Source: Iphione sp. A-MEVVRFRX5
Lineage: Eukaryota
Assembly: GCA_976226885.1 (NCBI GenBank)
Contig: OZ320317.1
Coordinates: 60,202,001-60,266,000, forward strand
Length of the DNA: 64,000 nt
Reading direction: 5' to 3'
Position numbers and translations under genes: made by a program. The notes under the pieces are model-generated. The model saw only the letters and a list, made by a program, of their open reading frames with translations, was not told the origin of the DNA and ran no database searches. Shown here piece after piece: positions 19,585-41,960 of the stretch; the first letter of the stretch is position 1; each line of letters opens with the position of its first letter.

Positions 19585-19681
19585 AGTAGTAGTAAATAGT
19601 AAGCAGAGAATAGTGTGTTGACTATGCTAATAAGATCAAACATTTTCCCCCCCACCCTAAGCCCCTCCCAGTGGGATCTGT
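19585..19681 (+). repeat. Left terminal inverted repeat (97 bp)
   Basis: Exact reverse complement of 41867-41960 except for one extra terminal AGT unit. Confidence 0.95.
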
Positions 19682-19952
19682 TTATTCGGGAACTGGGCTA
19701 GCCACGACAAGTGTATGCATAGTGTACATAAGTGCTTACCACCATCAGAAAGGTTTGGACGAGAGCTTTCCAAACCAGATGTGAACCGGTGAAGGTTGTT
19801 AACGTAAATGACAGAATGGGGGCTATGACTTGAGTTCACTGGGTGGTGGAATAGTCCATGTGAAGGTGGGGAAGGTAGCGGAACAGACATGTGAATATGG
19901 GAAGGAAGGCTAGCGTGACAGAGCTCCCTTTCTTATGACTCGGAGGATTGTG

Positions 19953-20050
19953 TCCCCACATTCAATCCCCACCTCAAGCTTGAGGTGGGAATTGAATGTG
20001 GGGAAGTGTTTTATCTTTGGTTTTGATTTCAGGAACCCCTAGGGGTTCCT
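19953..20050. repeat. Two subterminal palindromes (52 bp and 20 bp)
   Basis: 19953-20004 is TCCCCACATTCAATCCCCACCTCAAG|CTTGAGGTGGGAATTGAATGTGGGGA (26-bp arms, 1 mismatch, no loop). 20031-20050 is AGGAACCCCT|AGGGGTTCCT (perfect). Confidence 0.9.
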
Positions 20051-20379
20051 TCCAAAAATTGTGATTTGCTTTCCAGTTGTAGTTTCTCCTTATCCTTATT
20101 GAATGTGTGGGTATCGGTTTCACGTCGTTGTCACTAATTTTTTTGTAGCACGCAGGAGGTGTTTTGAAGGGCGAATGCGATGAATTTAACTTACAGTAGT
20201 GCTAGAGAGGTTTAAAATTCCATTCTACCTACCTAAACTTTGTAGAAGTGTTTGTCCTTTAGTTTTCTTGCTTGTAAGATCTTTTAGATATACTTAAAGG
20301 TGTATATATGAGCTTCAGTCTCGCTGACTCTTCCGAAACTGTCCTGCAGCGCCAAAACCTGCTGTAGTAAGTTTGGGAA

Positions 20380-20580
20380 CTAGGAATTTCCCGAGAGAGG
20401 TCGCCTCTGTGCTAGATTGTTTGGCGAAGTAAGCGGTGGTGGTGGTGGCGGCGGCGGCAGGGCTCCGCTAAAGTGTAAGTGACCCCCAACCTTCTCCAAA
20501 GACGACTGGATAAGATATGATGGGTTGAAGGGAAGGACCCATAAGATAAGTACGAATATAAACAACACCCAATTCCACAT
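20380..20580 (-). CDS. Possible small secreted or membrane peptide with a poly-Pro tract
   Basis: 66-aa ATG ORF with a hydrophobic N-terminus (MWNWVLFIFVLILWVLP) and eight prolines, divergent from polB. No recognisable homology. Confidence 0.35.
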   Translation of the reverse strand: MWNWVLFIFVLILWVLPFNPSYLIQSSLEKVGGHLHFSGALPPPPPPPPLTSPNNLAQRRPLSGNS

Positions 20581-20637
20581 ACAAGTAGATGAAATGTTTC
20601 TTAACCCATAACGTGATCTGACTAATTTTTTGGTGAT

Positions 20638-20796
20638 TATTCAGTATACAGAGTAAATATCTGATCCTGCGTGAAAGGACTTCGAGAATGTTTTCTTAAC
20701 CTACAATACGATCTATATTCAGTATACAGAGTAAATATCTGATCCTGCGTGAAAGGACTTCGAGAATGTTTTCTTAACCTACAATACGATCTATAT
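20638..20796. repeat. Perfect 78-bp tandem duplication upstream of polB
   Basis: The unit TCAGTATACAGAGTAAATATCTGATCC...CGATCTATAT starts at 20641 and again at 20719. Confidence 0.92.
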
Positions 20797-20907
20797 AACA
20801 TGATTCAACAGTTATTCAATCCTTTCATTTAGCATTAGTATAGTACTGCTTTCACTTTGAGAGGGATCTTTCAAGACTTCATTTCAATCAATAGAACTTA
20901 AAAGAAG

Positions 20908-26517: not shown

Positions 26518-26572
26518 TGTATAAATTGCTCAGCCGAAGGATTTCTTTTCAGTTTGAAATATATTTTGAAAG

Positions 26573-27197
26573 ATGTATGAACTTCCTGAGTATGTATTTC
26601 AATGTCCTACAACAATCACTATTAGTGGTTCAACAGGATCTGGTAAAACTTCATGGGTAAAAAAGCTATTATGTAATCCTAGTCTGTTTAGCTTACCACC
26701 CAGTAGAATAATATACTGCTATGGAACCTGGCAGGATGCTTTTGATGATATGAAGAATGTTGAATTTCGAGAGGGGTTGGATATTCCTATGGACACAAAT
26801 GGAGAACATATTGTTCTCATTTTGGATGATCTGATGAATGAAGTTATCAAGTCTCCATCAGCTGAATTGTTGTTTACTAGAGGATCTCATCATAAGAATA
26901 TAACTGTAATTTTTATCGTTCAAAACTTATTTCAGCAGGGAAAGTCTGCACGGAGTATAATGCTTAATACACATTACATGGTTCTCATGCAGAACCCACG
27001 TGATATTCAACAAATCAGAGTGCTTGCCAGACAGTTGGGGATGGAAAACTGTCTCGATCTTTCTTATAAGTTCTTATATGTTAGTGCCCTATGGTTATTT
27101 ATTGGTTGATCTTTCACCGCATAACATCAGAGATTTGAAACTCAAAACTGCAATATTTCCTGGAGAGACTACCATTGTCTATCTACCCAAGTACTGA
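26573..27197 (+). CDS. A32/FtsK-like packaging ATPase with an apparent +1 frameshift near 27086
   Basis: Walker A GSTGSGKT, Walker B LILDDL, GSHHKN, VQNLF..G..ARSI.LN. The conserved C-terminus PYGYLLVDL...IFPGE is in the next frame. Confidence 0.88.
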
Positions 27198-27199
27198 GA

Positions 27200-27622
27200 A
27201 TGAGATTTCCGAAATTCGTAGATGAAGATGTACGTCAGCAGACCTTTGCAGGCTGGAAGCATAGCTTGGACTCAAAGCAAATGGTTGATTGTGGATTCTT
27301 CTATTTAGGAGGACTTGATTCAGTGCAATGCTTTCACTGCGGTGTGCAACTACATTCATGGGATGAAAAAGACAATCCTCTCATAGAACATTTGAAATTT
27401 GCTCCTCACTGTGAATATATATGCAAGAAAGCTCATGTAATTTCATCACTATCAATGGAAATTATGCTAGAAGTCTTGCAACAATCTAAGAAATTACAAC
27501 TGAGAATAGCTGAATTAGAGCAAAAAGTTCATATGAACAATACAGCTGTAGATGAAGTGGATAATACTTTCAGTCTTTTTTCCAACAATAAGAGTAATGT
27601 AGCCAGAGCTGCTGTGCTTTGA
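27200..27622 (+). CDS. Single-BIR inhibitor-of-apoptosis-like protein with a C-terminal coiled coil
   Basis: R..TF..W, GFFY.G..DSVQCFHC...L.SW...DNP..EH.KF.P.C, giving the C-x2-C-x16-H-x6-C zinc ligands. No RING domain. Confidence 0.9.
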   Translation: MRFPKFVDEDVRQQTFAGWKHSLDSKQMVDCGFFYLGGLDSVQCFHCGVQLHSWDEKDNPLIEHLKFAPHCEYICKKAHVISSLSMEIMLEVLQQSKKLQLRIAELEQKVHMNNTAVDEVDNTFSLFSNNKSNVARAAVL

Positions 27623-27721
27623 GGTTAGTTCAACATTATCCTAAGTTGGTTATGAATACCTCAGCAGTCGAAATAGCTGAGCATTTACACTTTAGATACC
27701 GATAGAGATGGAGCTAAGTTT

Positions 27722-28048
27722 GTGGAAAAAATGTCACAGAAACTTAGATCTTCAGCAGACTTTTTCCGGTTATTAATGAATACTGAAAAGGAACAAGCAC
27801 TACAGCTATTGAATTCTATTACTGCTCTACAGACGCTTGCTCTGAGTGAAATAGCTTTGAACCTTACTATTTTACCTCTTTCTCAGAAAACCAAGAAACT
27901 TTTAACTCGATACAAGAGGTTGGTTTCTCTTCTGAGTAAGAAGACTAAATCCATCACAGCTAAAAGAAGTGCTATAAAGAAAAACCGTCGTACTATTCTC
28001 AATATTTTACAAAGTATTAAGCCTGAATTATTGGAATTGGTAAAATGA
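27722..28048 (+). CDS. Basic helical protein resembling a small gene commonly found in Maverick core blocks
   Basis: 108 aa, Lys/Leu-rich (LSEIALN, KKLL..YK.LV.LL.KK). Its stop overlaps the next start (ATGA). Confidence 0.7.
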   Translation: MEKMSQKLRSSADFFRLLMNTEKEQALQLLNSITALQTLALSEIALNLTILPLSQKTKKLLTRYKRLVSLLSKKTKSITAKRSAIKKNRRTILNILQSIKPELLELVK

Positions 28049-28512
28049 AAAAGATGGTACTAATTCCATTTGATCAGTTCTCTCGAAATAAGTTAAATTC
28101 ATCTCAAGAACCAACTGTTTCAATTAACAAGCTCGACACTGATCTAGTGTTACTTCCTTTTGGAAAACAACAAAGGAAAGCAGCTGAGGCTCTTTTAGGA
28201 TATGTGGAAAGGAACATGGACTGGAATAGGAATGGTGAAATCATCATTGATGGTGTGGTTGTTACTGGTAGCCATATCACAGATCTGTTGAAGGATGCCC
28301 TATTCAACTATAGGAACTTTGAACCTGTGGGCTATAAGGAATTTTATCAACATCTTCGTGAAATCCCACTTACATTGATCAGGAATCCCAAACGTCGAGT
28401 TCTGATAGGACGTGGACAATTACCACCGCCTGGAATACCAGTTGAGCAAACTCCTATTGACATCACAAAAGACAACAAAAAAGACTGGAAAACTAACTGG
28501 AAAACATTATGA
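28045..28512 (+). CDS. Maverick hypothetical protein upstream of the integrase
   Basis: 155 aa with W...GE..IDG..V.GSHI.DL and P.G..EF...L..IP..LI.N, recalled as typical of the Maverick gene preceding the integrase. Confidence 0.75.
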   Translation: MKKMVLIPFDQFSRNKLNSSQEPTVSINKLDTDLVLLPFGKQQRKAAEALLGYVERNMDWNRNGEIIIDGVVVTGSHITDLLKDALFNYRNFEPVGYKEFYQHLREIPLTLIRNPKRRVLIGRGQLPPPGIPVEQTPIDITKDNKKDWKTNWKTL

Positions 28513-29606
28513 GTAAAGAGTTAAGTAATATATATTTTGATCCCTCACGATCATCTTCATTCGGTGGGATTAATAAACTATATCAGGAGGCCAAGACTCT
28601 GGGATATAAGAAGAAGGATGTAGAGAACTGGCTTCAACAACAAGATGTCTACACCTTACATAGACGACTTAATCGGAACGTTAAAAGACCGAGGGTAGTA
28701 GTATCCTCAAAAGATCAACAGTGGGATGCGGATACTATGAACATGGTCTCTTTTGCTGAAGAAAATGATGGTTATAGTTATGTTCTAGTATTAATTGATA
28801 TATTTACTCGCTTTGTTTGGACTGTTCCTCTAAAAAAGCTGACAGGTAAAGAAATGGTCGATGCTTTAAAGCAGGTTTTTCCTCAGCACAAACCTAAAAA
28901 ATTAAGAACGGATTCAGGCTCCGAATTTGTTAATAAGGTTGTGAAAAAATATTTGCAGGAAGAAAATGTGTATCATTTTACTACAACTAATCTTGTGAAA
29001 GCTAATTACGCTGAAAGGGTAATTAAGTCTTTGAAAACAAAATTGGTTCGATATATGCATCAGACTCAATCCCATCATTGGCTTGATGTTTTAGCTAAAA
29101 TAACTGATGCATATAACATCACAAAACATAGCTCAATTAAAATGACACCTACACAGGCTAGATCTGTGAATCCTATTATCCTCTGGAAAAATCAATTTAA
29201 AGAGAAAAACCCTAGGATAAGGAAATCTAAACCTAAATCAAAACCAAAACCTGTGTATAAATTTAATATTGATGACCGTGTTCGTCTTGCACGCTATAGA
29301 ACCCCCTTTGAACGAGCTTATGATGAGAAATGGACACATGAAATATTTACTGTTACTAATAGAGCATTACAGCAAGGGATTTCACAATATACTATAAAAT
29401 CCTGGGATAATGAACCTGTGATAGGAAAGTTTTATGAAGAAGAGCTAGAGAAGGTTATTGTTAATGAGGATACTGAGTTTAAAATAGAACGTATTGTAAA
29501 GAAAAAGAAGATGAATGGACAAAATGGTTACGTTGTAAAGTGGTATGGTTGGCCGGAGAAGTATAATTCCTGGGTTCCTATTAGTGATGTCAAAAAGCTT
29601 AAATAG
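28509..29606 (+). CDS. int: Retroviral-like DDE integrase with C-terminal chromodomain
   Basis: QQWDAD (D), LRTDSGSEF (D), NYAERVIK (E). The C-terminal FKIERIVKKKK...YVVKWYGWPEKYNSWVP is a chromodomain. Confidence 0.95.
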   Translation: MSKELSNIYFDPSRSSSFGGINKLYQEAKTLGYKKKDVENWLQQQDVYTLHRRLNRNVKRPRVVVSSKDQQWDADTMNMVSFAEENDGYSYVLVLIDIFTRFVWTVPLKKLTGKEMVDALKQVFPQHKPKKLRTDSGSEFVNKVVKKYLQEENVYHFTTTNLVKANYAERVIKSLKTKLVRYMHQTQSHHWLDVLAKITDAYNITKHSSIKMTPTQARSVNPIILWKNQFKEKNPRIRKSKPKSKPKPVYKFNIDDRVRLARYRTPFERAYDEKWTHEIFTVTNRALQQGISQYTIKSWDNEPVIGKFYEEELEKVIVNEDTEFKIERIVKKKKMNGQNGYVVKWYGWPEKYNSWVPISDVKKLK

Positions 29607-29666
29607 TTCAACTCTTCTCATGTTCATCATTCTGTGTTTTGATTTCAAGCTGTAACAACAAGTAGG

Positions 29667-30050
29667 ATGTATCTCTTTATTAAGCAGAATGATTCTGAGC
29701 TGTTCTATCCTAAAAACACCAGTAGTGATTTCATAGTTGAACTACCACATTCATTAAAATTAAAAGGGGATTGGAGCTGTGCTCTTGTAGAATGTAATAT
29801 AGATAATCCTTCTTCTAAGGAATTATATATTTATTCCGATTTAATAGCATCAAGTGTTGTAAAAGGGAAAACAGCTCCCATTCTCAGAGTAACCAGTGAG
29901 AATGGTGAATTTGTGAATCCATATTACATACCAGTGATTAAGGATTATGTCTTTAGGTTCCGTGTTTGGATTAGAACAGTGGATGGAAAGCTATTTGAAC
30001 AAGATCTTGAAAATTGTCGCCTTGTCTTACATCTTAAAAAGGAGAGCTAA
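29667..30050 (+). CDS. Minor capsid protein (penton, single jelly roll), very compact
   Basis: 127 aa with F.VELP..L.L.G.W.CALVE, LYIYSD.I...V.G...PILR and NPYYIPV. Confidence 0.8.
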   Translation: MYLFIKQNDSELFYPKNTSSDFIVELPHSLKLKGDWSCALVECNIDNPSSKELYIYSDLIASSVVKGKTAPILRVTSENGEFVNPYYIPVIKDYVFRFRVWIRTVDGKLFEQDLENCRLVLHLKKES

Positions 30051-30099
30051 CTCCACTTAGAGTCATTTCAAATCAGACAAGCTAAGAGTCACAAGCAGC

Positions 30100-30471
30100 A
30101 TGAGCTTCATTCCCTATGTTCCAGACTTAGAAGCTTGGAAACAAGTTCCTAACCAAAAGGATAGTAAACCTTTCTATGTTCTTCAGAAGGGAAAGGGAAG
30201 TGATATTAAATTGGTTAGTCCTCAAGAGGGAGTCATTGAGAGAGCAAAGTATAAACTAAGTCGTCAGATAAAAACAACACAACCAAGAACACGTACTCAG
30301 TCGAGATCTAGGAAACGAAGGAGAGGGAACAAGAAGAAATCTATATCTGTATCTCATAAGAAGGTAAAGAGAAAGACAAAGACAAAGACAAAGACAAAGA
30401 AAACCAGTCTGAAAAGAAAACCAACCAAAACATCTAAAAGGAAATCTGGTAGTAAGAGAAGAGGACGATGA
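30100..30471 (+). CDS. Highly basic putative DNA-condensing core protein
   Basis: The C-terminal half is very K/R/S/T-rich, including a KTKTKTK repeat. An LQKGKG motif resembles an adenain cleavage site. The gene sits directly before the major capsid gene. Confidence 0.75.
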   Translation: MSFIPYVPDLEAWKQVPNQKDSKPFYVLQKGKGSDIKLVSPQEGVIERAKYKLSRQIKTTQPRTRTQSRSRKRRRGNKKKSISVSHKKVKRKTKTKTKTKKTSLKRKPTKTSKRKSGSKRRGR

Positions 30472-31799
30472 GTTATATACTGAGTAATGCACAAGAGGGT
30501 TTTGATGATCGCTTAGCCCTCTTCAATATTCCACCTGTAGAAACCGCAGTTCAAGAAATATATTATAAGGATTATCGTCCCATTGGTCAGATTGCTTCTG
30601 ATTCTACTTTGGAATTTGATGTGAGCAATAATTCACCTGATTATATTGTTTTGAATGAAATTTCATTGATAACAACGATTCAATTACACACTGACCAAGA
30701 TAAGCCAATCACCACAGCTCATGATGTGACTCTCATTAATTTTGCCGCTGCTACAATGTTCAGACAACAAGATTTTTATATTCAACAACAGCTAGTTACT
30801 AGCACTATAGGTGCTAACTTTCCTTATAAGGTAATGATAGATGGTTTGCTTGGACAAGGTTTAAATGATCAACTTAGTTGGATGTCTGTAGCCGGCTATA
30901 TGAAAGACACCGCCCTGCTTATGGACGATCATGAAGGAAAATCTAGTGGAAATACAGGTTTAACAGACAGATTTGATAAGACTAAAGCAGGAAAAAAGCC
31001 TGTATTCAAAACAAGACTCTTTATGGATATCTGTCAGCAGAAAAAAATGTTGTTAAACGGCTTACCTTTAAGTATTAAACTATATCCGAGCACAGAGAAA
31101 TTTAGACTGCTCTACAAAACTCAACCAACTACTGCACCTGCTACTACACCAAAGTCCTATAAAGTAAAATTACTAGATGCAAAATTACTTGTTCCTTTTG
31201 CCCGAATTCATCCTGGAATGATCATGGCACAGGGTGACATGTTGAAAAAGGAAATGGCATTGTATCCTTTTACTAGAAGCGAGATAAAGTCCTATAATAT
31301 TCCTAAAGGTAGTTTAAACTGGAGTATGGATAATCTTTTTCAAGATATAATTCCCAAGCGTTTGGTTATGGGTTTCGTTTTAGCAAGTGCTTATACTGGT
31401 GAAAACGAAAAAAATCCTTTTAATTTTCAACACTTTGATGTATACTATCTCGACTTCCAAGTTAATGGGCAGAGTAGTGGAGGTCAAATCCTACAACCAG
31501 ACTACAAAAATCATAATTATGTTTCTGCTTTTGTCAGACTATTTGAGAGTATGCCTCCTGATCAGACAGAACCACCAAATATTACCTATTTAGATTTTAG
31601 AGGGGGATATTGTTTATATGTCTTTGATTTAGAAAAGGGAAAGGATTCTACATATTCAATCCCATTACGAAAGGGTCAAACAAGGCTCTCTGTGAAATTT
31701 GCTAAAGCTCTACCCGAACCCGTTTCAATAATTGTGTATGGAAGTTTTGAGGCTCTTATGAAAGTAGATCAAGCAAGAAATGTTATAATCGAGACCTGA
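30468..31799 (+). CDS. Major capsid protein (double jelly roll)
   Basis: 443 aa with L.LF..PPV...V.E, YIVLN...L, P.R...GFV...AY.G....NPFNFQHF, F..GYCLY.FDL and L.VD..RNV. Confidence 0.92.
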   Translation: MSYILSNAQEGFDDRLALFNIPPVETAVQEIYYKDYRPIGQIASDSTLEFDVSNNSPDYIVLNEISLITTIQLHTDQDKPITTAHDVTLINFAAATMFRQQDFYIQQQLVTSTIGANFPYKVMIDGLLGQGLNDQLSWMSVAGYMKDTALLMDDHEGKSSGNTGLTDRFDKTKAGKKPVFKTRLFMDICQQKKMLLNGLPLSIKLYPSTEKFRLLYKTQPTTAPATTPKSYKVKLLDAKLLVPFARIHPGMIMAQGDMLKKEMALYPFTRSEIKSYNIPKGSLNWSMDNLFQDIIPKRLVMGFVLASAYTGENEKNPFNFQHFDVYYLDFQVNGQSSGGQILQPDYKNHNYVSAFVRLFESMPPDQTEPPNITYLDFRGGYCLYVFDLEKGKDSTYSIPLRKGQTRLSVKFAKALPEPVSIIVYGSFEALMKVDQARNVIIET

Positions 31800-32260
31800 T
31801 GCTCATAAAAATGGTTGTACAGGTACAAAACTCACATTCAGCAATGAACAGTGAACAGATAACTAAATATCTTCTATCAGATACCCATACTTCTAAATAT
31901 TTTAAGGGTGTATTAGCCTATGATGAGATGCCTGAAGAAATTACCTATCCATGTTTGTTCGTTGTTAACACAGATCCATCATTCCGACCAGGAAATCATT
32001 GGGTCTGTGTCTTCTGCGCGGATGTTAATGAATACTTTGATTCTTTAGGGTTTCCACCACTAGAGTTAGAACATTTCCTTTCAAAACAAAGAAAAAATTA
32101 TAAATATAATACTAAAATATTACAGGGTAGCAAAAGTGATGTCTGTGGAGATTATTGTGTTCTCTTTGCTTATTTTCGCTGTAGAGGTTATAGCATGGAA
32201 TATTTTTTATCCCTATTTAGCTCGGATTTAGATTACAATGATAAAATAGTTGAATTATGA
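31799..32260 (+). CDS. Adenain-like cysteine maturation protease
   Basis: VVNTDP...PGNHW (His), EYFDSLG (Asp), LQ.....VCG.YC (Gln, Cys). The real start may be MNSEQI at 31844. Confidence 0.92.
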   Translation: MLIKMVVQVQNSHSAMNSEQITKYLLSDTHTSKYFKGVLAYDEMPEEITYPCLFVVNTDPSFRPGNHWVCVFCADVNEYFDSLGFPPLELEHFLSKQRKNYKYNTKILQGSKSDVCGDYCVLFAYFRCRGYSMEYFLSLFSSDLDYNDKIVEL

Positions 32261-32478
32261 TAAACTTAGAATGAATAGTATCATTATACAACATGTATTC
32301 ATTAGAAATAAAAAAGAAATGTATCCAGCAAAATACTTGTTTATTATATATTCTGTTGAAATCTCTTGAATTCTCACAACCTTTATATGAGGCAAAAAAA
32401 AGTAAAAGAAGCTTTTTGAATGAAATACGCAGGTGATATATATATATATACCTGTGCTCAAAGCAACTGAACGATAAA

Positions 32479-33600
32479 TAATCTTGACTCAGCAAGAGGT
32501 AAATATACTATGGTTATCTTAAACACTCTTTGACTTCAACATAGCTTCATCATGGATCTCGCCTTATTTTTTGTTACGTCTGTGTCATACATTTTAAAAT
32601 GGAATCAAACCAACTACACGAGAGATAATCTTAACTCAGCAAAATGCAAACATACTATGGTTAATATTAAACAGTCTTTGACTTCAACATAGCTTCATCA
32701 TATAACTCACAAAAGAAAACTATATGAGTTTATTCCCCACTTACACATCTCTTTTCAAGAGATAAATATTTATGTAATGAACCTGGCTAACTAGCTGGTT
32801 TTTAACAAGAGAACACATTGTATGAGCCCCATACTTCAAGCTCTACTACTCCTTGGAGGATAATCTACAAGTAAATATTAAAAAAGGGAACACACACTTA
32901 GCAATATATCCACGCTTAACTAGCGAGCCCTGAACCCAACTAACTAGCTAGGTTCTAACAAGAGAACATACGATATGACTGTCACGCTTTAAGCTTGTCT
33001 ACTCCTTTGAGTAGTACAGTAAATTCTTTTTTAAAAGTCTAGGACAGTAATAATAATAGCTGTGCCCAGCTAGCTAGTAGATTATAAAAGGTCTACACGA
33101 GTTCCTTGAGTAAATATCTTGAAAAAGAGAAGACACTCGACATTATCATCACGCTTAACTAGTGAGCCCAGAACCCATCTAACTAGATGGATTCTAACAA
33201 GAGAACATACTGTATGACTGTCACGCTTTAAGGTCTACTCCTTTGAGGAGTACCTCTTTTGATATAAAATATATGTGTGAGCACCACGCTTTAAGGTTTA
33301 CTCAGCTGAGACCCAGCTAGCCAGCTAGCAAACTAATTGCTAGATCTATGTATGTATGTATGACTAACATGCTTCAAGGTCTGTTTAGTTGTCCTTGAGC
33401 AATATTTTCTATATAAGAATGAGCACCACGGTTTAAGGTCGACTCCTTTGAGCAATATCTCTTTTGATATAAAATATATGTGTGAGCACCACGCTTTAAG
33501 TTTTACTCAGCTGAGCCCAGCCAGCCAGCCAGCCAGCTAGCTAGTTAGCTAAAACCTTATAAAAAGTCTACAGCAGTTCTTTAAGTAAATATCTTGAACA
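32479..33600. repeat. Non-coding mosaic of nested imperfect direct repeats inside the Maverick
   Basis: Paired blocks: ~32479-32551 with ~32626-32701, ~32911-32992 with ~33149-33232, and ~33255-33310 with ~33458-33513. CACGCTT(T)AAG and (A)GCTAGCT motifs recur. Confidence 0.85.
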
Positions 33601-33648
33601 TGAGAAGATGGATTCTCCTATGCAAACCTGTAAAGGTTTCGAGCTAAA

Positions 33649-33885
33649 TTAAATGTCCTGAGGAGCTCGATTCCGTAAATTATACCTGTGAGTTCTATTA
33701 CGTAAATTATATCCATTTTTGTGAGGAGTATTATCTGCTCCTGATAGGCGTCGTTGCCGTCGTCTTCTAAGTCCTCTCATATGTTCGTTGTCCGCATCAT
33801 TTACAGCAGCTATTACACGGTGATTTTCTACGTCTTGATATCTCATTCGCGCCGCCATCTCCTCCCTCATTCTGACTGAAAACAT
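33649..33885 (-). CDS. Small basic peptide with tandem YNLR.R chromatin-binding-like motifs
   Basis: 78-aa ORF ending RRRRQRR...NGYNLRNRTHRYNLRNRAPQ. A TTTTCAG acceptor at its 5' end suggests an upstream exon, or a start at Met 33870. Confidence 0.65.
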   Translation of the reverse strand: MFSVRMREEMAARMRYQDVENHRVIAAVNDADNEHMRGLRRRRQRRLSGADNTPHKNGYNLRNRTHRYNLRNRAPQDI

Positions 33886-34523
33886 ATATTCAAAGATAAT
33901 AAATTATATGAATCAAGTCAAATTGTTAACAAGCACCAAAAGAATTGAGTACAGGAGATAATATTTATTGTGAGCCAAAAGAATTGGTTACAGGATATAA
34001 TATTTATTGCTAAATCAAATATATTTCATCTTAGGAATTTTTTATTTAAATAAGTTAAACTGATAACAGCTATTGATAAATTTTGGACTAATTTATAGAA
34101 GTTAGATACATAATAAGAAACTGAGAGTTCAAGAAATTCAGATATAAAAAAGATTTAAGTGTATGAAAATTAAGATGGGAAAAAAAAAGAAAATTCGTGC
34201 CTTACACCTATGTCTCGCATTTATGTCAGGAAGCAGATCGATCTCGTCATCTACTCCGTTGTAAACACTACATGAAATATAATTAATCTCTTGTGAATTT
34301 TGTGTGAATTCACACTACATAGAGATCATAGACGGAAGCAAATCGTTTACTCCAAATAAAGTTACTTTAAACAAAGAAACAATACTGATAAGTTATGTAA
34401 CCTTTAAAATGGAAGCAAATCAACTACTTCAGACAGAAGTTATATTAAATGACCCTAGTACACTTTTTTGCTAAGTTAAGTAGATATTTACGTTTATTAT
34501 TAATATTTGGTATTCATCAATCT

Positions 34524-35330
34524 TTATGAAGATACATACTGATTCTGATATGCATGTCCATGTTCGGGCGCTCCATCAAGAGGTAGCTCCATCGCGCCCA
34601 ATCCTTCAATCTGCCCATTCAACGCACCCAGCATCATCGCCTCCTGGATATTTCTTCTATTTTTTTTACAATAGCGATGGACATAAACTAGAGCTGCAAT
34701 AATCATGATGAAAATCACAGCCAGTCCAACATATAACAAAATCCATACTTTGTTTTCAATTGGACCCATTCCATTATCCGCATGCTCTGATGTCGTAGTT
34801 CTTGACTTAGCTGGACTCAATCGAGGGTTAATATCATCTGTATCAAGCTCATCAGTATTACGATGAATACTTTCCACCAAACTGCCCTCGCCGTCTGGAG
34901 CTGGGCCAACAGTGTCATAATATTCAGTGTCATGATCATCATCATCAGTAAAGTCATTCGGAACAAGCTCCCTCTCACTAGAGGAGGAAGAGGACTCGCA
35001 ATCTGATTTGATTGCAAGTTGCTCGTGGCTTTGAATTCTGCTGCAGGGAATATCCGTATTTCGTACATCAATGAGCAGAGTTTGAGGAAATAATTTGTAA
35101 ACCAGTGTCAAGTTCAATGTGTCCAGTTTCGAATAGCGGAAATCCAAATACCTGAATCCGTAAAACTCCTTTCCCGCTACAAGCAGCGAGCGAATCAAGC
35201 TAGTTATAGGAATACTCCGGCAAAGTAGTCGTGAACCCTTGCATCTGCATCTTTCACACAAGTCATTAGACTGAACAGATGAAATTAAAATAACACAAAC
35301 TAAAGAAGAGAAAACGAAAAATTTTGCCAT
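34524..35330 (-). CDS. Type I membrane protein 1: signal peptide, short LRR module, acidic Ser/Thr stalk, TM, Tyr-containing tail
   Basis: LRRNT-like CERCRC.GSRLLC, LRR-like LDFRYSKLDTL and LIDVRNT.IPC, TM VWILLYVGLAVIFIMIIAALVYV followed by a basic stop-transfer segment. Confidence 0.85.
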   Translation of the reverse strand: MAKFFVFSSLVCVILISSVQSNDLCERCRCKGSRLLCRSIPITSLIRSLLVAGKEFYGFRYLDFRYSKLDTLNLTLVYKLFPQTLLIDVRNTDIPCSRIQSHEQLAIKSDCESSSSSSERELVPNDFTDDDDHDTEYYDTVGPAPDGEGSLVESIHRNTDELDTDDINPRLSPAKSRTTTSEHADNGMGPIENKVWILLYVGLAVIFIMIIAALVYVHRYCKKNRRNIQEAMMLGALNGQIEGLGAMELPLDGAPEHGHAYQNQYVSS

Positions 35331-35747
35331 AATGGCTGCGTTGCAAAGTCACTGTAAAGGGATCAGGTTAGTTTCCCATTTTTTTCGCTAGCGAGCTAGC
35401 GAGCGAATATACTGTTTCAGTGGTGATGATCAGTTCTATATTATACATAAATAATGATATGATATGATATGATAAGATAAGTGAGGGGTTAAATAGTAAA
35501 ACAGTGATTTGTTTTCGTATTTGTTATTGATTCAATTCACTAGATGGCGCCCTAGTTCATAAAAAACTGATTTAGTTTTGTATCTCAGTAGATGGCATGC
35601 TAGTACATAAAACGCTGCCCTGAGCTATGTTTTAAAGGACTAGCACTGGCTTATTTAACTTTTTTGAGGACAGAGTCCCTTCCTGTATACGTCTCGTTGT
35701 AAACACTAGTCTCTATAATGACTAGAAAAAAAAAATCATAAGAGAAA

Positions 35748-36404
35748 ATGGTCACTTCTCCCGAAAGAATCAAAACTCCTAATATAATATCATATTATTG
35801 GTTGAGGGAATTTGAAGACGAATCTAAACACGGTGTTCGCTTTCTACATGAATCAGTAGGAGAGAGAAATGAATTTCCACCTAATTCCATAATATTACAA
35901 TATTATCGTTGGTGTTTAAGAGACTATGAAATGAATATTATATATGTTAGTGAGGATGTTTTCCTTTTAAGAGAGTTGTGTGATATCATTGGAAAAAGAG
36001 CTTATAATTCAGCTATGTTCAGGGGCTTCATCTGTGAAAGTGATAAGATATACTTTATTCAACAGAAACCACATATTTATGGAATTATTACTGAAATAGC
36101 TAATCGACCAGATAGGGTGGATGTTATGAAGAAGGTATACACTTATTTGTTGCATCTTGAATTCAGCAAATTAATTAGCTTAGACTTCATCATAGAAAAT
36201 CTATTTGAGGAATATGCAATATACTGTCATCTTCAAATAAACTACAAACGACTGGCGAATGCTAGTTCCTATATGGCTAATTTCTTCCAAGTTGAAAGCT
36301 ATTTCAGTTTTAAAGAAACTACAGATTTCCTCAATAATCAAAATCCTGCGTCCACACTGCGTGACGTAGCATCACAAAAAATTTATGAATTTACATTCAT
36401 CTAA
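35748..36404 (+). CDS. Unknown family, paralogue P1 (218 aa)
   Basis: Shares YYRWCLRD...IYVS.D.FLLR.LC...G.RAYN, MK.VY.Y.L, RLA....Y and Q.P...IYEF with P2 and P3. Confidence 0.85.
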   Translation: MVTSPERIKTPNIISYYWLREFEDESKHGVRFLHESVGERNEFPPNSIILQYYRWCLRDYEMNIIYVSEDVFLLRELCDIIGKRAYNSAMFRGFICESDKIYFIQQKPHIYGIITEIANRPDRVDVMKKVYTYLLHLEFSKLISLDFIIENLFEEYAIYCHLQINYKRLANASSYMANFFQVESYFSFKETTDFLNNQNPASTLRDVASQKIYEFTFI

Positions 36405-36728
36405 ATACAACTCTTTGAGTATGTTATCTTAGGAATGTATTTATGCAATATCATGCAGGCAATGACCTAGCAACGAATAGATTCGTGAGGATGAACACGA
36501 TGAATTACTTGAACCACTAGAACAGTACGATTAACCTGATTTTATAAATTCCATATTGCGCAAATGTTGACGTATCTGAATATATTAGCCTTGTAAATAT
36601 CTAGAACCAATGGTTGAAGCGAACTCATCCTTTTAAATAACTGCTATGGACGTTTTCTCTCTCAGAGGCGCAGCTGACTTCTGAGAGCATTTTCCCGATA
36701 CCTATTTTTTCCCCAAATTTTAAACGAG

Positions 36729-37791
36729 ATGGAGAGGTTAAGTTCAAAAGTACAGGTTAAGGAAGAGGACGGATTCTTGAAAATTGTACGCCGAAAATAT
36801 GATAAAGTCCGCAATGTTGCGGTTCCCATGGAGGTTATTTCATGGGCATTAGAAAACCAGAAATTTATCCTGGAAGCAAAGCTGTCGTACGCAGGAGACA
36901 AGATGATGGAAACAATAGTTCCAGATTGGAAGGTGATGGTCTCGTTCTTCCTAAACGAATTTTACATTGGTTTCAACAAATATATCAATGGAGAAAGAAG
37001 CGGGTAAGTTAATTATATTTATATATTAATATTATTATTTATCTATACATCAACTTTAAATCTAATTAAATGCCTCACGTTAACCACAATATCTTCATCA
37101 TCATTAAATCTTATATCATCATTTCCTCCATTTCAGAATGGATTCCATAAATCTTCATGTTGATGAATTCAAAAAATTGGTTGAAATTAATGAAATAGAG
37201 AAGGGAATGCCCCCACAGAAGAAAATGCGACGAACATATCAACGTTGGCAGTATGAAGTTGTCGACTACAAGGGCGTCAGTTTGATCAAATCTAATTCAT
37301 GGTTCCTATCGCAAAAAAGAGCAAGAGAAGAGGCTATGGTTGTAAAGGCTAGCTTTGAAGAAAAAAGTGATATCAAAGATGATACCACACTTAAGGCAGA
37401 CATAGAAATGTTTTGTCAAGAACTACTTTTACCCTCTGCTAGTCAGATCGCTGAGAAAGTTTATAGCTATATTTTGAGGAAGGAATTTGAAAGCAGAGTC
37501 AATCAGCTATATAGCGGTTCTAACTATACTGTTCTACAAATAGATGAAAGTAGCTCAGGTGAATTAGTCAAGTATCCGGAACATCTATTCAGAGAACATG
37601 CAAAGCCCTGTCATTTGAGAATTTCACTACCAAGATTAATGGAAGGTTGTAATATAATTACTCGTTATTACGGATTTGATACACTTGTTACACATATGGA
37701 AGCATTGCAGGTGCTCAAAAGAGCACAACCTTTTGAAGTGTTGAAAGCAAATAAGCCTGATTTTGAAAATGAATATGCACAGCTTGATTAA
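36729..37791 (+). CDS. Spliced PC4-like ssDNA-binding domain fused to divergent paralogue P4 (~309 aa)
   Basis: Exons 36729-37003 and 37137-37791; the intron 37004-37136 is GTAAGT...TTTCAG, phase 2, and joins in frame. The join creates VMVSFFLNEFYIGFNKYINGERSG|MDSINLHVDEFKKL, which is PC4-like. The C-terminal part has KVYSYIL..EF and RLMEGC..I..YYG. Confidence 0.72.
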
Positions 37792-38118
37792 CTTTGAGTA
37801 TGATGATGTAATACTTTTTATTATCTATAAAACTTATTACAATGCAACATTAACTAGCTTATAGTTTTGGAATCTAATTCATATCAATTAGCCACTACTA
37901 CAATATATACTTATAATAATGATAGATTTAATTGTAGCATATTATACACTGCTTCAAAGCTCGGTAAAATTGTAGCTGTTCTTTGTTCACTTATTCATAT
38001 AGTTATACTTCTGTTTCAAGCGTATAACATAGACTTATAATGATAAACTTGACTTGTAGTATATACTGATTTAAAGCTCAATAAAAAAAAATTGTTCTTT
38101 CTTCACTTATTCTTGTGG

Positions 38119-39051
38119 TTATACTTCTGTTTCAAGCATATTTGTTTCAATCATATTATATATGTCATTATAAAATCCATAATAATCAACTACTGCAACT
38201 CTCTTCTTACGAAATTTTCTCACAAGAATAACCGCTATTAAAACTATTATTATTATAAACAATAATGGACATAACACCCAAAGAACAATATTCACAATCG
38301 GAATCCTATTGGTTCCATCTGTACTTCTTCCAGTTGAGTTCATAAAAGTTGTACCGACGCCCTCTTCAGTGATAGTAGTCGCAGTTGAGTTGAAATACGG
38401 TTTACTACCACCCTCCTCAGTGATAGTAAAAGTTGTGAACGACCCAGTTGACCTTGTTGTAGTTGTGTCACGCTCAGTCAGATAACTGAACGTTGAAGAA
38501 GCGCTCGAAGATACAATAGTAGCAGTAGTAGTGGGTTTAATAGAAGATGAGTTAGTACGTAATGTAATATTAGCAAAAGAAGAAGTGATGAATGCTGTGG
38601 TTGTGGACTTCGTAGTAGATCTGCTTTCTGAAGTAGTAGTAGTAGAAAGTAAATCTGTACTAGGTTGACTATATCCATATGGAGAAGAAGAAGAAGAAGA
38701 AGAGGAGAAATATGTTGAGGCCGTAGATGCTGACTCACGCTCACAGTTCCATAGCAAAGTAAAGTTCACTGTTAATGGAATAGATTCGCAGGCAAAGTTA
38801 CTCCACTGATTCCGTATATCGAGTAGTTGCAATACCTGGAACTTTTCAATTATATCCATTCGTAGTTGTGACATTTTACACCAGCGCCAATCGAGATGAG
38901 TGTACTGGCGGTTAATTGGGATGAAAAGTGACTGCGGATCCACTCTTCTGCATGTAATAGTGTCCCATACACACGAACAGATTTGGCAAATACTGTTTTG
39001 TGCATATCCATGTGATATGAGTATAAGCAGGAGAATAATGCATTTTTCCAT
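38119..39051 (-). CDS. Type I membrane protein 2: signal peptide, short LRR module, mucin-like Ser/Thr stalk, TM, tail ending ETEV
   Basis: CQICSC.WDTITC, LDWRWC.MSQL, LLDIRNQ..NFAC, ~140-aa S/T-rich stalk, TM IVLWVLCPLLFIIIIVLIAVILV followed by RKFRKKR. Confidence 0.87.
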   Translation of the reverse strand: MEKCIILLLILISHGYAQNSICQICSCVWDTITCRRVDPQSLFIPINRQYTHLDWRWCKMSQLRMDIIEKFQVLQLLDIRNQWSNFACESIPLTVNFTLLWNCERESASTASTYFSSSSSSSSPYGYSQPSTDLLSTTTTSESRSTTKSTTTAFITSSFANITLRTNSSSIKPTTTATIVSSSASSTFSYLTERDTTTTRSTGSFTTFTITEEGGSKPYFNSTATTITEEGVGTTFMNSTGRSTDGTNRIPIVNIVLWVLCPLLFIIIIVLIAVILVRKFRKKRVAVVDYYGFYNDIYNMIETNMLETEV

Positions 39052-39323
39052 ATCTAAGTAAAATATTCAGAACAGGAGACACGAAGTGTGCACGACGAGT
39101 CCCGGCAGACAAATAAGAAGGGTCACAAGTCAGGTTCGCGATCAGTCAGCTCACTTAATGAGAGTCATAAATCATTGAGAAAAGGGGGTCAGTAAATAAA
39201 GGGTTAGAAGTCGGGTTTAGACTTGATGCTCTAAGAAACGCGCGGAACAGCGAACAAGATAGGGATAGACCTAAAATATGGATAAATAACTAACACAAAA
39301 TCTTTAATAGAAACTCTTTATTT

Positions 39324-40106
39324 TCACATAGTAATTAGTTCATATATTGTTGTACTACTTTCATTTAGACCTGCAGAATATATAGGATCCTGTGCTTTAA
39401 GAAATTCCTCAACTTCTGTAAAAGTGAAAGTTTCACTCAATCCATAAAGCATAGAGATATATGCACAACCACTAGCCAATCGATTAACAGTTATGCGAGT
39501 ATGAGAAGACATAAGACAAATTTTATAATTCTTACTATTTATAACCATTCTAGTTCTTGTTCTCTGATACTCATCATCCAACATATAATAATAAACCATT
39601 TTCATAATACTCTCCTTAGTTACTGTTGGAGGATATTCAGTGATGACTCCAAAGTCTTCAATCTTGTCAGCTGTAAGTCGTGAACTAGGCTTTGATTGCT
39701 CATATACCCTCCCCAAAACCTTAACACAATTATATGCTCTTCTACCCATAATGGTACATAAATCTTTCAAGAGAAATATGTCATTACTAATGTAAACAAC
39801 ATTATGATTCCGATCCCGCAGATACCAGCGATAGTGAGCTGGAGGTGAAACTTTTGGGTATACATTTTGCACTCCACCAAAACCAGCTCTTAAATTCATA
39901 TGATGTTTATCTTCTTCAATTTCCTTTATATAACACTTAGTGAAATAGTCTATTTCATCAGTACTATCATGAGATCCATCCAGGTCACCGTCAGCTTGAT
40001 GATCCGCAGGCAAACTTGATTCATAGGCAATATGATCGAGCTCCATGTTATGTTCAAAACCTGGCGATGTTGACTGTACCCACTCCACTCGTAAACTAAG
40101 CTTCAT
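39324..40106 (-). CDS. Unknown family, paralogue P2 (260 aa)
   Basis: HYRWYLRD...VYISNDIFLLKDLC.IMGRRAYN, IMKMVYYYML, RLASGCAY, QDP...IYEL. Confidence 0.85.
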   Translation of the reverse strand: MKLSLRVEWVQSTSPGFEHNMELDHIAYESSLPADHQADGDLDGSHDSTDEIDYFTKCYIKEIEEDKHHMNLRAGFGGVQNVYPKVSPPAHYRWYLRDRNHNVVYISNDIFLLKDLCTIMGRRAYNCVKVLGRVYEQSKPSSRLTADKIEDFGVITEYPPTVTKESIMKMVYYYMLDDEYQRTRTRMVINSKNYKICLMSSHTRITVNRLASGCAYISMLYGLSETFTFTEVEEFLKAQDPIYSAGLNESSTTIYELITM

Positions 40107-40141
40107 ATAGTCAGACAGAGTTATATATTCCTGAAAGATAT

Positions 40142-40792
40142 TTATAACATTCTAAATTCATAAATGTTACTTAATACCTCTACTGAATGCGTCACAATTG
40201 GATTTTGAGCAGTTAGAAACGCACACACCTTCTCACAATCATAGTATGAATCTAAACAATATAATGTTGCCACATATGCACATGCATTTGCTAAGCGTCT
40301 AGGAGTTATTTTAGAATGAATCTTCGATAACAAAAAATCAATATTTTGCAGATCTACAAGCACTCTCTCTTTAAGTCTTTCAAAATCATTATTCAAAATG
40401 TAAATGTAAACCTCTTTCATAATTTGTTCTTTAGTCGGTATTTCTTTGAAAGACGTTATTATATCATAAAAATGTGGAACTCCTTCTAATACCTCCTGCT
40501 TAAATCTATCATGAACCCAGCCATTAAAACAGGCGGTATTAAATGCTCTCCGCCCCATAGCATTACATAGATCCCGCATCAGAAATATTTCATCACTAAC
40601 ATATATAGTTTTCAAGTTAACATCTTTTAGACACCAATGATAATATTTCACCATCTCATCTTCATTTGAATATTCATCTATCACCCCCGAGCTGCCATCA
40701 TCATCATTCCCCATATCATACCTATCCTCCTCCACTTCCCTATAATAATATTCCATATAATAATTGAATTCATTTTCTTCTTCTTCCTCCAT
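40142..40792 (-). CDS. Unknown family, paralogue P3 (first ATG at 40792; the ORF track starts at TTG 40828)
   Basis: YYHWCLKD...IYVSDEIFLMRDLC.AMGRRAFN, IMKEVYIYIL, RLANACAY, QNP...IYEF; acidic N-terminus. Confidence 0.85.
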   Translation of the reverse strand: MEEEEENEFNYYMEYYYREVEEDRYDMGNDDDGSSGVIDEYSNEDEMVKYYHWCLKDVNLKTIYVSDEIFLMRDLCNAMGRRAFNTACFNGWVHDRFKQEVLEGVPHFYDIITSFKEIPTKEQIMKEVYIYILNNDFERLKERVLVDLQNIDFLLSKIHSKITPRRLANACAYVATLYCLDSYYDCEKVCAFLTAQNPIVTHSVEVLSNIYEFRML

Positions 40793-40826
40793 CACACTTT
40801 TATATTTACCAAATGATACATTATAC

Positions 40827-41120
40827 AAAAAGTCGGCCCCCGTGGTTCAATGTCCTTTCTATACTAGCTTCCACCTGTTCTCCTCCCATCTTCAACATTG
40901 AAGTCAACGTCATAACTCCATGTTGGATATCCTAGCTGTCCAACATGAACGACAATCGTCTCAGCCTGCTCTGTCAGGATGCACAACCAGACGGCTGAGC
41001 CAGGATAAACACCGCTACCTATTTTCTTCACGTTGGCCGGTGAGGGAGTCGAACCCTGCTCATCACTGTCTCGTATCTGTTGGACGGAGCGCCCTGCGCT
41101 CCGAACCACGGGGACCGGCT
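40827..41120 (-). ncRNA. Candidate RNA polymerase III transcript (~290 nt), VA-RNA/EBER-like
   Basis: A-box-like GTGGTTCGGAGCG at about +12 and a B box GGTTCGACTCC at 41055-41045. The 5' end (41119-41103) pairs with the 3' end (40848-40832) over 17 bp, with one mismatch and one G-U, immediately before TTTTT. Confidence 0.65.
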
Positions 41121-41560
41121 GAAAGTGCAGTAACAAATCACTTGGTGGTTGCTATGCAGAGACACTAACCCCATCTGGTGTTTCTCCCTGGTAGTTAGAG
41201 GGATTTCTACCCTTCGTAAACAATAGATGGCGGTAAAAACGATACAGGTAAGAAAATTATACATACTTGCAAAGATATGGAAAATTAATCAATTTCTTTC
41301 ATCTTCAAGATATTAATCTATTCTCATGGGAAAAACTACAGTAGAATTAATACATACCACAATCAAACGGCGATTTCACAGCCCCATTCACTTGAATTGA
41401 GCCTTGTATTCAGGAAACACCATTTCAAGCTATGTCCAGGGTTTATGAGATTTCATCTTCATCACCGATAAAAAATAACTCTTGCCTAAAACATGGCAAA
41501 CAGAGTATACAATAACCGCATCAGGCTGAAAGAGCTCAGCTTGGTCGGATCCTAGCCGTC

Positions 41561-41764
41561 ACTGTCTCGTATCTGTTGTACGAGACAGTTGGATCCAGAT
41601 CTCTTTACAGAGGTCACCTACTTAACCAAAATTAACTTCTTTCACTCTGTTCTTCACGTAGGCTAGTCTAAAGTCATGTCTGCCTTCCCTCCCTTACGTC
41701 TCATTTATAAATCATTCCACCTCTTTCCTTCCCTTAATTCCATACTTGGACTCGTCCAAGTATG
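41561..41764. repeat. Right subterminal hairpins
   Basis: 41561-41589 is ACTGTCTCGTA-7-TACGAGACAGT (11-bp stem). 41741-41764 is CATACTTGGAC-2-GTCCAAGTATG (11-bp stem). Confidence 0.85.
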
Positions 41765-41866
41765 TCACTTTCACGCAACGTATGAGCTACGTACATTCGG
41801 TTCAAGCTATGGCTCGCGTTCACAACCAGGGGTGGGCTCACTCTCTCAGAGTCAATATATGCAAAG

Positions 41867-41960
41867 ACAGATCCCACTGGGAGGGGCTTAGGGTGGGGGG
41901 GAAAATGTTTGATCTTATTAGCATAGTCAACACACTATTCTCTGCTTACTATTTACTACT
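41867..41960 (-). repeat. Right terminal inverted repeat (94 bp)
   Basis: Reverse complement of the left TIR. It ends ...TATTTACTACT, followed by the TSD GTGGTG. Confidence 0.95.

Follow-up and report, generated by a model that had tools for sequence, protein, structure and literature searches.

A retained pair of predicted mini-LRR type I membrane proteins in Maverick elements and their possible role at the host-cell surface

The locus analysed here is a Maverick that carries, beside its core genes, two genes for predicted stalked membrane proteins, which we call genes A and B. The entry of animal Mavericks, their persistence and the decision to mobilise are poorly understood, and almost no non-core gene of these elements has a function assigned to it. 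The window, by which we mean the whole stretch of 64,000 nucleotides that was analysed, contains a Maverick/Polinton element at 19585..41960 that carries both genes and is defined by its TIRs, TSD and gene content. The TIRs are 94 nt long and 100% identical (19588-19681 and 41867-41960), the termini consist of AGT repeats and a 6-bp TSD, GTGGTG, lies at 19579-84 and 41961-66, as is the hallmark of Mavericks. The Maverick core genes are also present, namely pPolB, an rve integrase, an A32-type ATPase, an adenain protease and a capsid; the rve+chromo integrase and the ATPase lie above the Pfam cut-off, the protease is a weak Pfam match only (E 0.034), and PolB and the capsid, which are without Pfam matches, were named by sequence, order and size. 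The major capsid protein, placed by position and size, and the adenain-like protease occupy 30468..32260 on the + strand. The element has no further long TM frame besides A and B.

Analysis of the open reading frames and their hydropathy agrees in outline with the preliminary description: in each of the two proteins the N-terminus is hydrophobic and the head is Cys-capped, and a stalk of low complexity and a single segment of strong hydrophobicity complete the layout. Gene A (34524-35330, - strand; 268 aa if unspliced) has a predicted signal peptide, a mini-LRR head at ~aa 22-112, an acidic stalk and a predicted TM segment at ~aa 195-217 with a peak mean hydropathy of 3.09. Gene B (38119..39051, - strand) is a single exon of 310 aa with a predicted signal peptide, a head at ~aa 18-104, a Ser/Thr-rich stalk, a predicted TM segment at ~aa 256-278 (peak mean hydropathy 3.59) and a short tail, the signal peptides of both proteins being called by hydropathy alone. 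Both stalks had been described as mucin-like, which is true of gene B (Ser/Thr at 74/146 residues) and not of the window copy of gene A, in which Ser/Thr make up 19/80 residues and Asp/Glu 21/80. The two heads are paralogous, as had been claimed, with a local score of 89, whereas 5000 shuffles averaged 25.4 and reached 53 at most.

Both heads are predicted to fold as minimal extracellular LRRs, which upholds the fold that had been read from the letters. In the AF2 models (pLDDT 93.4 for the B head and 92.0 for that of A) ~90 aa form two LRR strands plus caps, and the CxxCxC...C N-cap, which is of the animal extracellular type, and the LxxLxL strands are modeled as an LRR fold. A structural search matches LRIM1 to the B head at Z 8.8 (rmsd 2.3, 83 aligned) and to the A head at Z 8.4 (rmsd 2.7, 85 aligned), while LRR proteins account for 59 of the 60 PDB sequence matches listed for the family profile, which also matches residues 1-61 of LRRTM2 at E 3e-6. 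LRR modules of ~90 residues are among the smallest of their kind. The head has two invariant C-terminal Cys, versus four in a canonical LRRCT, and its short cap is a partial structural match. Neither A nor B matches Pfam LRR, LRRNT or LRRCT at the curated cut-off, and LRR_8 is weakly matched in 3/35 family members (best E 0.039). Foldseek alone returned no match for the heads at E<=0.001, and a BFVD fold search likewise gave nothing at E<=0.001, its weak matches being only LRR proteins of large DNA viruses. The first ESM Atlas matches, at 0.89, are LRR clusters, which we treat as a lead only. A protein word-index search with B residues 1-110 scored 0/54 candidates, and no relative was found in the scanned viral contigs and metagenome contigs.

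The tail of gene B (38119..38193, - strand) contains three YxxPhi motifs spaced 4 residues apart, an FxNxxY motif and, in the form of a class I PDZ ligand, the C-terminal motif E-[ST]-x-V, all of which are conserved in the subfamily representatives. In the window the sequence YYGFYNDIYNM is followed by a C-terminal ETEV, confirming in the ORF what had been noted before, and E-[ST]-x-V is the C-terminus of gene B in 13/13 subfamily representatives. Across those representatives the tail motifs are under strong constraint (pN 0.065 vs pS 0.86), making this the most constrained part measured, beyond even the capsid (pN 0.124). Among database homologues with a TM segment and a tail, 12/35 have a class I PDZ terminus, [ST]-x-[VIL] (shuffle mean 0.77, maximum 5), and 17/35 have NxxY (shuffle mean 4.2, maximum 12). 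The conservation of the tail supports the view that gene B would be displayed on the host cell and trafficked by its predicted PDZ and tyrosine motifs. Against this stands that the distant B-type genes do not have such a tail in their unspliced frames.

Gene A had, like gene B, been described as intronless, a point that we revise; it is probably spliced, with two further exons, because conserved, phase-compatible splice sites follow the TM segment. Predicted exon 1 (34540..35330, - strand) includes the start of the tail and ends at a phase-2 donor at 34539, with the unspliced frame continuing past it to 34524. Such a donor lies near the end of the frame in 11/13 representatives, and in 7 of those 11 it itself supplies the stop codon of the frame. 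Predicted micro-exon 2 (34206..34267, - strand) is acidic and 62 nt long, and its phase-2 acceptor and phase-1 donor are kept in 11/11 near-identical copies and were recovered by a narrow pattern search in 5/13 representatives. The predicted last exon (33649..33875, - strand) encodes an Arg cluster and two YNLR motifs, shares its frame with a 78-aa ORF (33649-33885) that has its own ATG, and would complete a product of 359 aa. A phase-1 acceptor with Y-x-L-R is present in 8/13 representatives and Y-x-L-R in 9/13 subfamilies overall, the motif being missing from 4/13 close subfamilies. None of the 9 distant A-type tails that were examined has it; these tails are low-complexity and run to hundreds of residues. 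YNLR occurs on the strand of A in 7/13 loci (0.59 on average and at most 3 in shuffles) and on the other strand in 0/13, and in one subfamily Y[NF]LR is found on the opposite strand at 5/20 loci. Cleavage of the A tail by adenain was considered and set aside, as inspection of relatives did not show the one consensus-like site of the window copy.

We tentatively propose, at a confidence somewhat below even, that A and B form a host-cell-surface trafficking and signalling cassette of Mavericks. Both would be type I membrane proteins acting in the surface-endosome system of the host. A conserved molecule on the host surface would be the ligand of B, the most plausible candidates being an immune receptor or the receptor through which the element itself enters. 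B would re-route this ligand by means of the tyrosine/NxxY and PDZ motifs, much as adenovirus E3 RID acts on host receptors, with superinfection exclusion or dampened recognition as the possible outcome. Gene A would relay to chromatin through its predicted spliced tail, in which Y-x-L-R resembles a nucleosome anchor, provided that the tail is released or gains nuclear access. The two proteins may be co-expressed from a shared promoter.

The distribution of the pair speaks for this proposal. Within the same genome, A or B lies within 25 kb of 91/94 related capsid loci, where 0.4% would be expected by chance, and an equivalent pair was found in 10/10 distant Mavericks sampled, whose capsids are 36-41% identical. 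The two genes stand head-to-head within 1.6 kb at 81 of 112 strong B matches, and they adjoin the capsid/protease module in the sampled lineages. The back-to-back arrangement is ancestral. By comparison of gene order with relatives, it was lost in the window subfamily through inversion of a block at 35748..39051 (three ORFs plus gene B) that splits A from B. Since this subfamily keeps both genes without the back-to-back layout, a shared promoter is not essential. The 8-mer CATTAACC is present in 10/11 back-to-back A-B spacers (shuffle maximum 7) and is absent upstream of both window genes.

The same core-like retention, and the fixed place beside the capsid/protease module across lineages so divergent in their capsids, would also fit a Maverick particle with an envelope in which A and B are the membrane proteins; this is the main rival, which we take seriously while holding it to be rather unlikely. 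The preliminary description had taken the virus to be of a non-enveloped type, which is an assumption and not an observation. Attachment to host cells would fall to the heads, whereas the basic Y-x-L-R tail of A would hold the nucleoprotein packaged in the particle or fasten the incoming genome to host chromatin so that it can integrate, in the manner of foamy-virus Gag. Attachment proteins are often built as a small head on an O-glycosylated stalk, and viral envelope proteins also carry endocytic and PDZ tail motifs, so the motifs of the B tail are compatible with a place in the virion. In nematodes, Mavericks have a gene for a predicted type I fusogen and were proposed to form enveloped virions (10.1101/2022.07.12.499685). 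In the window, however, no stretch of the element has room for an 800-aa fusogen, the recycling-type tail of B is more constrained than the capsid, as would suit a protein with a long-term task in the host cell, and the distant A-type tails consist of long low-complexity sequence.

An elaboration of the surface cassette, which we consider unlikely, is a two-part sensor in which B cycles an LRR receptor through endosomes while A is a Notch-like membrane-tethered chromatin binder. Its released tail would dock on nucleosomes by a foamy-Gag-type anchor, and an outside cue, e.g., a superinfecting virus, would activate or silence host genes or the element in its integrated state. Less probable again is that B acts separately at the surface and A remains uncleaved as a nuclear-envelope/ER tether that anchors either chromatin or the excised element to the membrane, or that its last exon serves chiefly to make a short basic peptide on its own. 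The Arg cluster, the Y-x-L-R motifs and the separate ATG of the last exon would allow this, and long disordered tails with basic signals resemble those that target the inner nuclear membrane. Nevertheless, phase conservation at the donor, the micro-exon and the acceptor links the last exon to the frame of A, and the intact LRR head of A, which is under purifying selection, suggests a luminal or extracellular partner.

We give little credence to the view that an arms race with host immunity has made the heads diversify fast, as decoys or as variable receptors of the VLR kind. The preliminary description had named decoy receptors among several possible roles and had suggested a test for positive selection in the ectodomains. 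The heads of A are on average 46% identical between subfamilies vs 77% for the capsid, and the stalks vary freely in length, as such a role might predict, but pairwise NG86 comparison gave the opposite of diversification. Both heads are under purifying selection, with mean pN far below pS (0.36 vs 0.83 for A; 0.22 vs 0.84 for B), and, as most dS values are saturated, omega could be bounded at <=0.26 for the A head and <=0.17 for that of B in the 8 and 6 of 78 pairs with a defined dS. No positive selection on the heads, nor the diversified binding surface that is a trait of VLRs and GPIb-alpha, was seen in these pairwise comparisons with few defined dS values, and Asp-x-Arg on both LRR strands is invariant within each family.

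Among 20 sampled orphan loci, 4 have no other Maverick gene in the surrounding 10 kb and a fifth is ambiguous; in each of these five, either the gene or its partner is split, truncated or broken by a stop, and no intact stand-alone host copy of A or B was found among the 20. The idea that A and B are host genes or recent host captures without a real link to the element, to which these orphan loci and the animal extracellular type of the LRR N-cap might point, is largely refuted by this damage, by the 91/94 capsid loci and by the location of 10/10 distant homologues inside Mavericks.

The mini-LRR type I pair is an unnamed family that deeply separated Maverick lineages retain as they would a core gene. 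No description of an LRR membrane-protein pair in Polintons/Mavericks was found in the literature by title or abstract, and such a pair is not mentioned in the accessible text of PMC8097293, PMC8502044, 10.1101/2024.03.25.586562 or 10.64898/2026.10.13.758929, the supplements of which may annotate accessory ORFs. The ancestral back-to-back layout, the near-universal retention and the predicted spliced, chromatin-type tail of A were likewise absent from the preliminary description. Homologues of the family exist in other public assemblies. The pair offers a surface module for a host-ligand search, a PDZ/endocytic tail and a candidate membrane-to-nucleosome link, and it bears on the question of whether Mavericks form enveloped particles.

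Of known systems, the heads had been likened to the stalked LRRs of GPIb-alpha and VLRs. The stalked LRR architecture stands, while the AF2 models show no multi-repeat solenoid of that type, and the closest likeness is to the one-to-two-repeat module of the small GPIb-IX subunits, GPIb-beta and GPIX, type I membrane proteins with a Cys-capped LRR module of ~90-120 aa. The match to 3rfe_A, which we take to be the beta subunit of GPIb (the database entry reads 'GPIb ectodomain', 119 aa), has Z 7.0 for the B head and 6.6 for the A head, and that to 8wfs has Z 6.3-6.5. This likeness is architectural rather than orthology, as larger LRR proteins such as LRIM1 score as high or higher. A and B differ from these subunits in their 14-19% identity, long stalks, different C-cap, location on a mobile element and sorting/PDZ or chromatin-type tails.

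Adenoviruses are a lineage related to Mavericks (adenain, protein-primed PolB), and their E3 proteins (RID-alpha/beta, CR1 family) are type I membrane proteins with tyrosine sorting tails that re-route host receptors. In contrast to E3, the heads of A and B are predicted LRRs and the retention of the pair is that of core genes; there was no Pfam E3 match and none among the BFVD matches listed. Membrane-related genes of other Mavericks, as given in the accessible parts of the reports, are nematode MFUS-1 and adintovirus PLA2X and GasderminX, which are of fusogen, lipase and pore-former types, unlike the LRR type I pair. For vertebrates, PMC8097293 describes Mavericks without introns, whereas the window element appears spliced. 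The C-terminal ETEV of gene B is identical to the PDZ ligand of HTLV-1 Tax (PMC5882172), although Tax is a soluble transactivator and B a predicted membrane protein. In PFV Gag, according to the accessible sections of PMC9040877 and PMC6042332, the Y-x-L-R anchor lies in a basic disordered region, and Y537, L539 and R540 of the chromatin-binding site engage the H2A-H2B acidic patch (PMC9040877). The Y-x-L-R of gene A would similarly lie in a basic disordered segment of the predicted spliced tail; unlike that of Gag, this candidate nucleosome anchor would end the cytoplasmic tail of a membrane protein, and the likeness spans four residues only.

Genes A and B are a real, previously unnamed pair encoding predicted mini-LRR type I membrane proteins, and both lie inside a Maverick/Polinton of 22.4 kb. 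This element has perfect terminal repeats of 94 nt, ends made of AGT repeats and a TSD of 6 bp; its gene set includes PolB (split), an A32 ATPase and a BIR protein, and further genes encode a chromodomain-bearing integrase, the capsid module and a protease resembling adenain. The genes and introns that flank it suggest an animal host. The ORF listing places A at 34524-35330 and B at 38119-39051, both on the minus strand and of 268 and 310 aa, respectively, in agreement with the preliminary description, and the layout proposed there also stands for both: a head of ~90 residues rich in Cys, a stalk of low complexity, a single strong TM segment and a tail. Their N-termini are hydrophobic, as a signal peptide would be, and this prediction is based on hydropathy only. 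The heads are 28% identical and align at a score of 89 versus 25.4 on average and 53 at most in 5000 shuffles, which bears out their paralogy. A mucin-like stalk had been attributed to both proteins; it is present in B (74/146 residues Ser/Thr) and not in this copy of A, where the stalk is acidic (Asp/Glu 21/80, Ser/Thr 19/80).

Other features of the region were also observed. The PolB gene (21186-26517) comprises several frames with GT-AG-like signals at their edges (for example, donors near 24615 and 25365 and an acceptor near 24698), which points to a putatively spliced Maverick polymerase here; equal reading-frame breaks are suggested in distant lineages, and vertebrate Mavericks are described as intronless in PMC8097293. 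A NADAR domain (25666-26517, E 8e-12) is in frame with the apparent last PolB segment, as it is in distant lineages, and a single-BIR (IAP-type) gene (27200-27622, E 1e-18) lies within the core module, the BIR genes of other lineages being located in the accessory arm. Four paralogous ORFs of 216-260 aa (35748-36404, 37138-37791, 39324-40106 and 40142-40792; mutual identity 23-36%) are kept in most related elements; the Pfam search gave them no family, and Atlas a weak cyclin C-terminal lead (0.83). Beyond the element are a single-ORF sulfatase (14449-16251) and a polycystin-channel exon (8133-9335).

The LRR assignment is supported for both A and B by profile search and structure prediction. 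The Pfam search found no LRR in A or B and matched LRR_8 weakly in 3/35 family heads, and a profile of 35 heads searched against PDB sequences gave LRR proteins as 59 of the 60 listed matches, among them LRRTM2, matched over its N-cap and first repeats (E 3e-6). The AF2 head models are confident (pLDDT 93.4 for B and 92.0 for A; pTM 0.83). With these models no Foldseek match reached E<=0.001; the best-ranked rows, all weaker than this threshold, were TLR, VLR, Slit and GPIb chains. LRIM1 ranked first in VIA-align for both heads, with Z 8.8, rmsd 2.3 and 83 aligned for B (re-examination of 557 Foldseek chains) and Z 8.4, rmsd 2.7 and 85 aligned for A (search of 48,161 chains), while the GPIb chain 3rfe (119 aa) gave Z 7.0 and 6.6, respectively. 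As modelled, the head is a minimal LRR, with two LRR strands between an N-cap and a short C-cap that has two Cys.

The PDZ-type end and repeated Tyr motifs first noted in B's tail are conserved in 13/13 representatives, one per close subfamily of related elements in this genome: each has E-[ST]-x-V at its C-terminus, with nine spellings in total, preceded by a near-invariant motif with three YxxPhi and one FxNxxY. Both YxxPhi and NxxY serve as signals for endocytosis or recycling. A full-library profile search with the heads gave 248 matches at E<=0.001; from the best 150, 51 single-stretch matches spanning the head were taken, 35 with a TM and tail, and the ten looked up were all unnamed Logan assembly proteins. 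Among the 35 database homologues a class I PDZ motif is present in 12 (shuffle mean 0.77) and NxxY in 17 (shuffle mean 4.2). The window B ends in the same four letters, ETEV, as the PDZ ligand of HTLV-1 Tax (PMC5882172). We tentatively propose, at somewhat short of an even chance, that the pair is a host-cell cassette. Judging from motifs, B would cycle between the surface and endosomes and capture and re-route a conserved molecule of the host, for which an entry receptor or an immune receptor is most plausible, and A's cytosolic tail would be long and capable of engaging chromatin.

In own-genome searches with the two proteins, 150 candidates were scored for each (from totals of 691 and 224), and 102 A matches (E<=3e-15) and 112 B matches (E<=1e-20) were retained for counts. 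Head-to-head arrangements with A account for 81 B matches at <=1.6 kb and 5 farther apart, with 14 in tandem and 12 alone; the tandem form is that of the window's subfamily and its sister, where an inverted block holds B and three ORFs. Ten weak-match loci (~25-40% identity) were all Mavericks whose capsids share 36-41% identity with that of the window, and each has an equivalent back-to-back pair (types C and D) adjoining the protease gene. In a quick head tree (95 columns), B, C and 21/30 database heads form one branch (SH-aLRT 99), outside which are A, D and the remaining 9, and from this split the A/B duplication looks older than the sampled lineages. The distant C- and D-type head queries each gave at least 150 scored matches (of 650 and 536 candidates), so there are several hundred such elements in this genome, many with open frames. 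At two loci (L085, L094) genes from two Maverick lineages occur inside one 10-kb stretch, which suggests nested insertion or recombination. Core-like retention adjoining the capsid module would also suit virion envelope proteins, for which the predicted nematode Maverick fusogen offers a precedent (10.1101/2022.07.12.499685), but this element has no room for a fusogen-sized gene, and we consider such a role, the main rival, less likely than the host-cell cassette.

For the proposed host-cell cassette, A's tail depends on splicing. Both genes had been described as intronless; A is probably spliced, as conserved splice signals predict two more exons, giving 35330-34540, 34267-34206 and 33875-33649 on the minus strand and a predicted product of 359 aa. 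A phase-2 donor lies close to the end of A's frame in 11/13 representatives, itself furnishing the stop codon in 7 of these 11; an acidic micro-exon (phase-2 acceptor, phase-1 donor; narrow pattern) is found in 5/13. In 8/13, plus a ninth subfamily via another copy, there is a last exon that has a phase-1 acceptor and carries Y-x-L-R close to its end, the motif being absent from 4/13. YNLR occurs on A's strand in 7/13 loci and on the opposite strand in 0/13, versus a mean of 0.59 loci in 200 shuffles. Among 20 further loci, 6 have Y-x-L-R on A's strand and 5, all of one subfamily, have it on the other strand. Of the 9 D-type genes, 6 show a phase-2 donor where the frame ends or close by, with long low-complexity frames after it, and Y-x-L-R was found in none of the 9. 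Degenerate direct repeats (45-124 nt, spacing 150-240 nt) occupy 32450-33610, with the protease gene on one side and the predicted last exon of A on the other. Downstream of one A-type gene (L061) is a long Ser/Pro-rich frame with repeated LRSGR, reminiscent of the nucleosome anchor of KSHV LANA. According to PMC9040877 and PMC6042332, Y537, L539 and R540 are the residues through which PFV Gag binds the acidic patch of the nucleosome. That A is a nuclear-envelope tether, or that a separate peptide is made, appears improbable.

The check for positive selection on the ectodomains gave purifying selection instead. In pairwise comparisons of the 13 representatives (78 pairs, dS saturated in most), mean pN/pS comes to 0.36/0.83 (A heads), 0.22/0.84 (B heads), 0.065/0.86 (15-codon B tail motif) and 0.124/0.71 (capsid), and omega is <=0.26 in every pair with defined dS. 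With pN far under pS in both heads, we regard diversifying decoys as very improbable.

With the capsid as query, 95 out of 1445 candidates in this genome were scored, leaving 94 once one distant row was dropped, and 91 of these 94 loci have A or B within 25 kb; a scored capsid is near 90/102 A matches and 89/112 B matches, versus 0.4% by chance. Twenty more loci were inspected, 19 of the 24 that lack a scored capsid nearby and one weaker match: 15 have other Maverick genes within 10 kb, 4 have none and 1 is ambiguous, and in each of these last five the gene or its partner is interrupted by a stop, split or truncated. That A and B are host genes residing at non-Maverick loci is scarcely credible given this linkage and the 10/10 distant homologues in Mavericks. 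The pair is a conserved cassette, not a stray capture, and nearly all Mavericks sampled in this genome carry it.

No Pfam model exists for the family, and the literature covered by our search, in which the Polinton papers were represented by passages of their main text, does not describe such a pair in the parts consulted. Adenovirus E3 proteins are trafficking modulators, and A and B would work in a similar way, though they are apparently not members of E3; they are built like the small subunits of GPIb-IX without belonging to that family.
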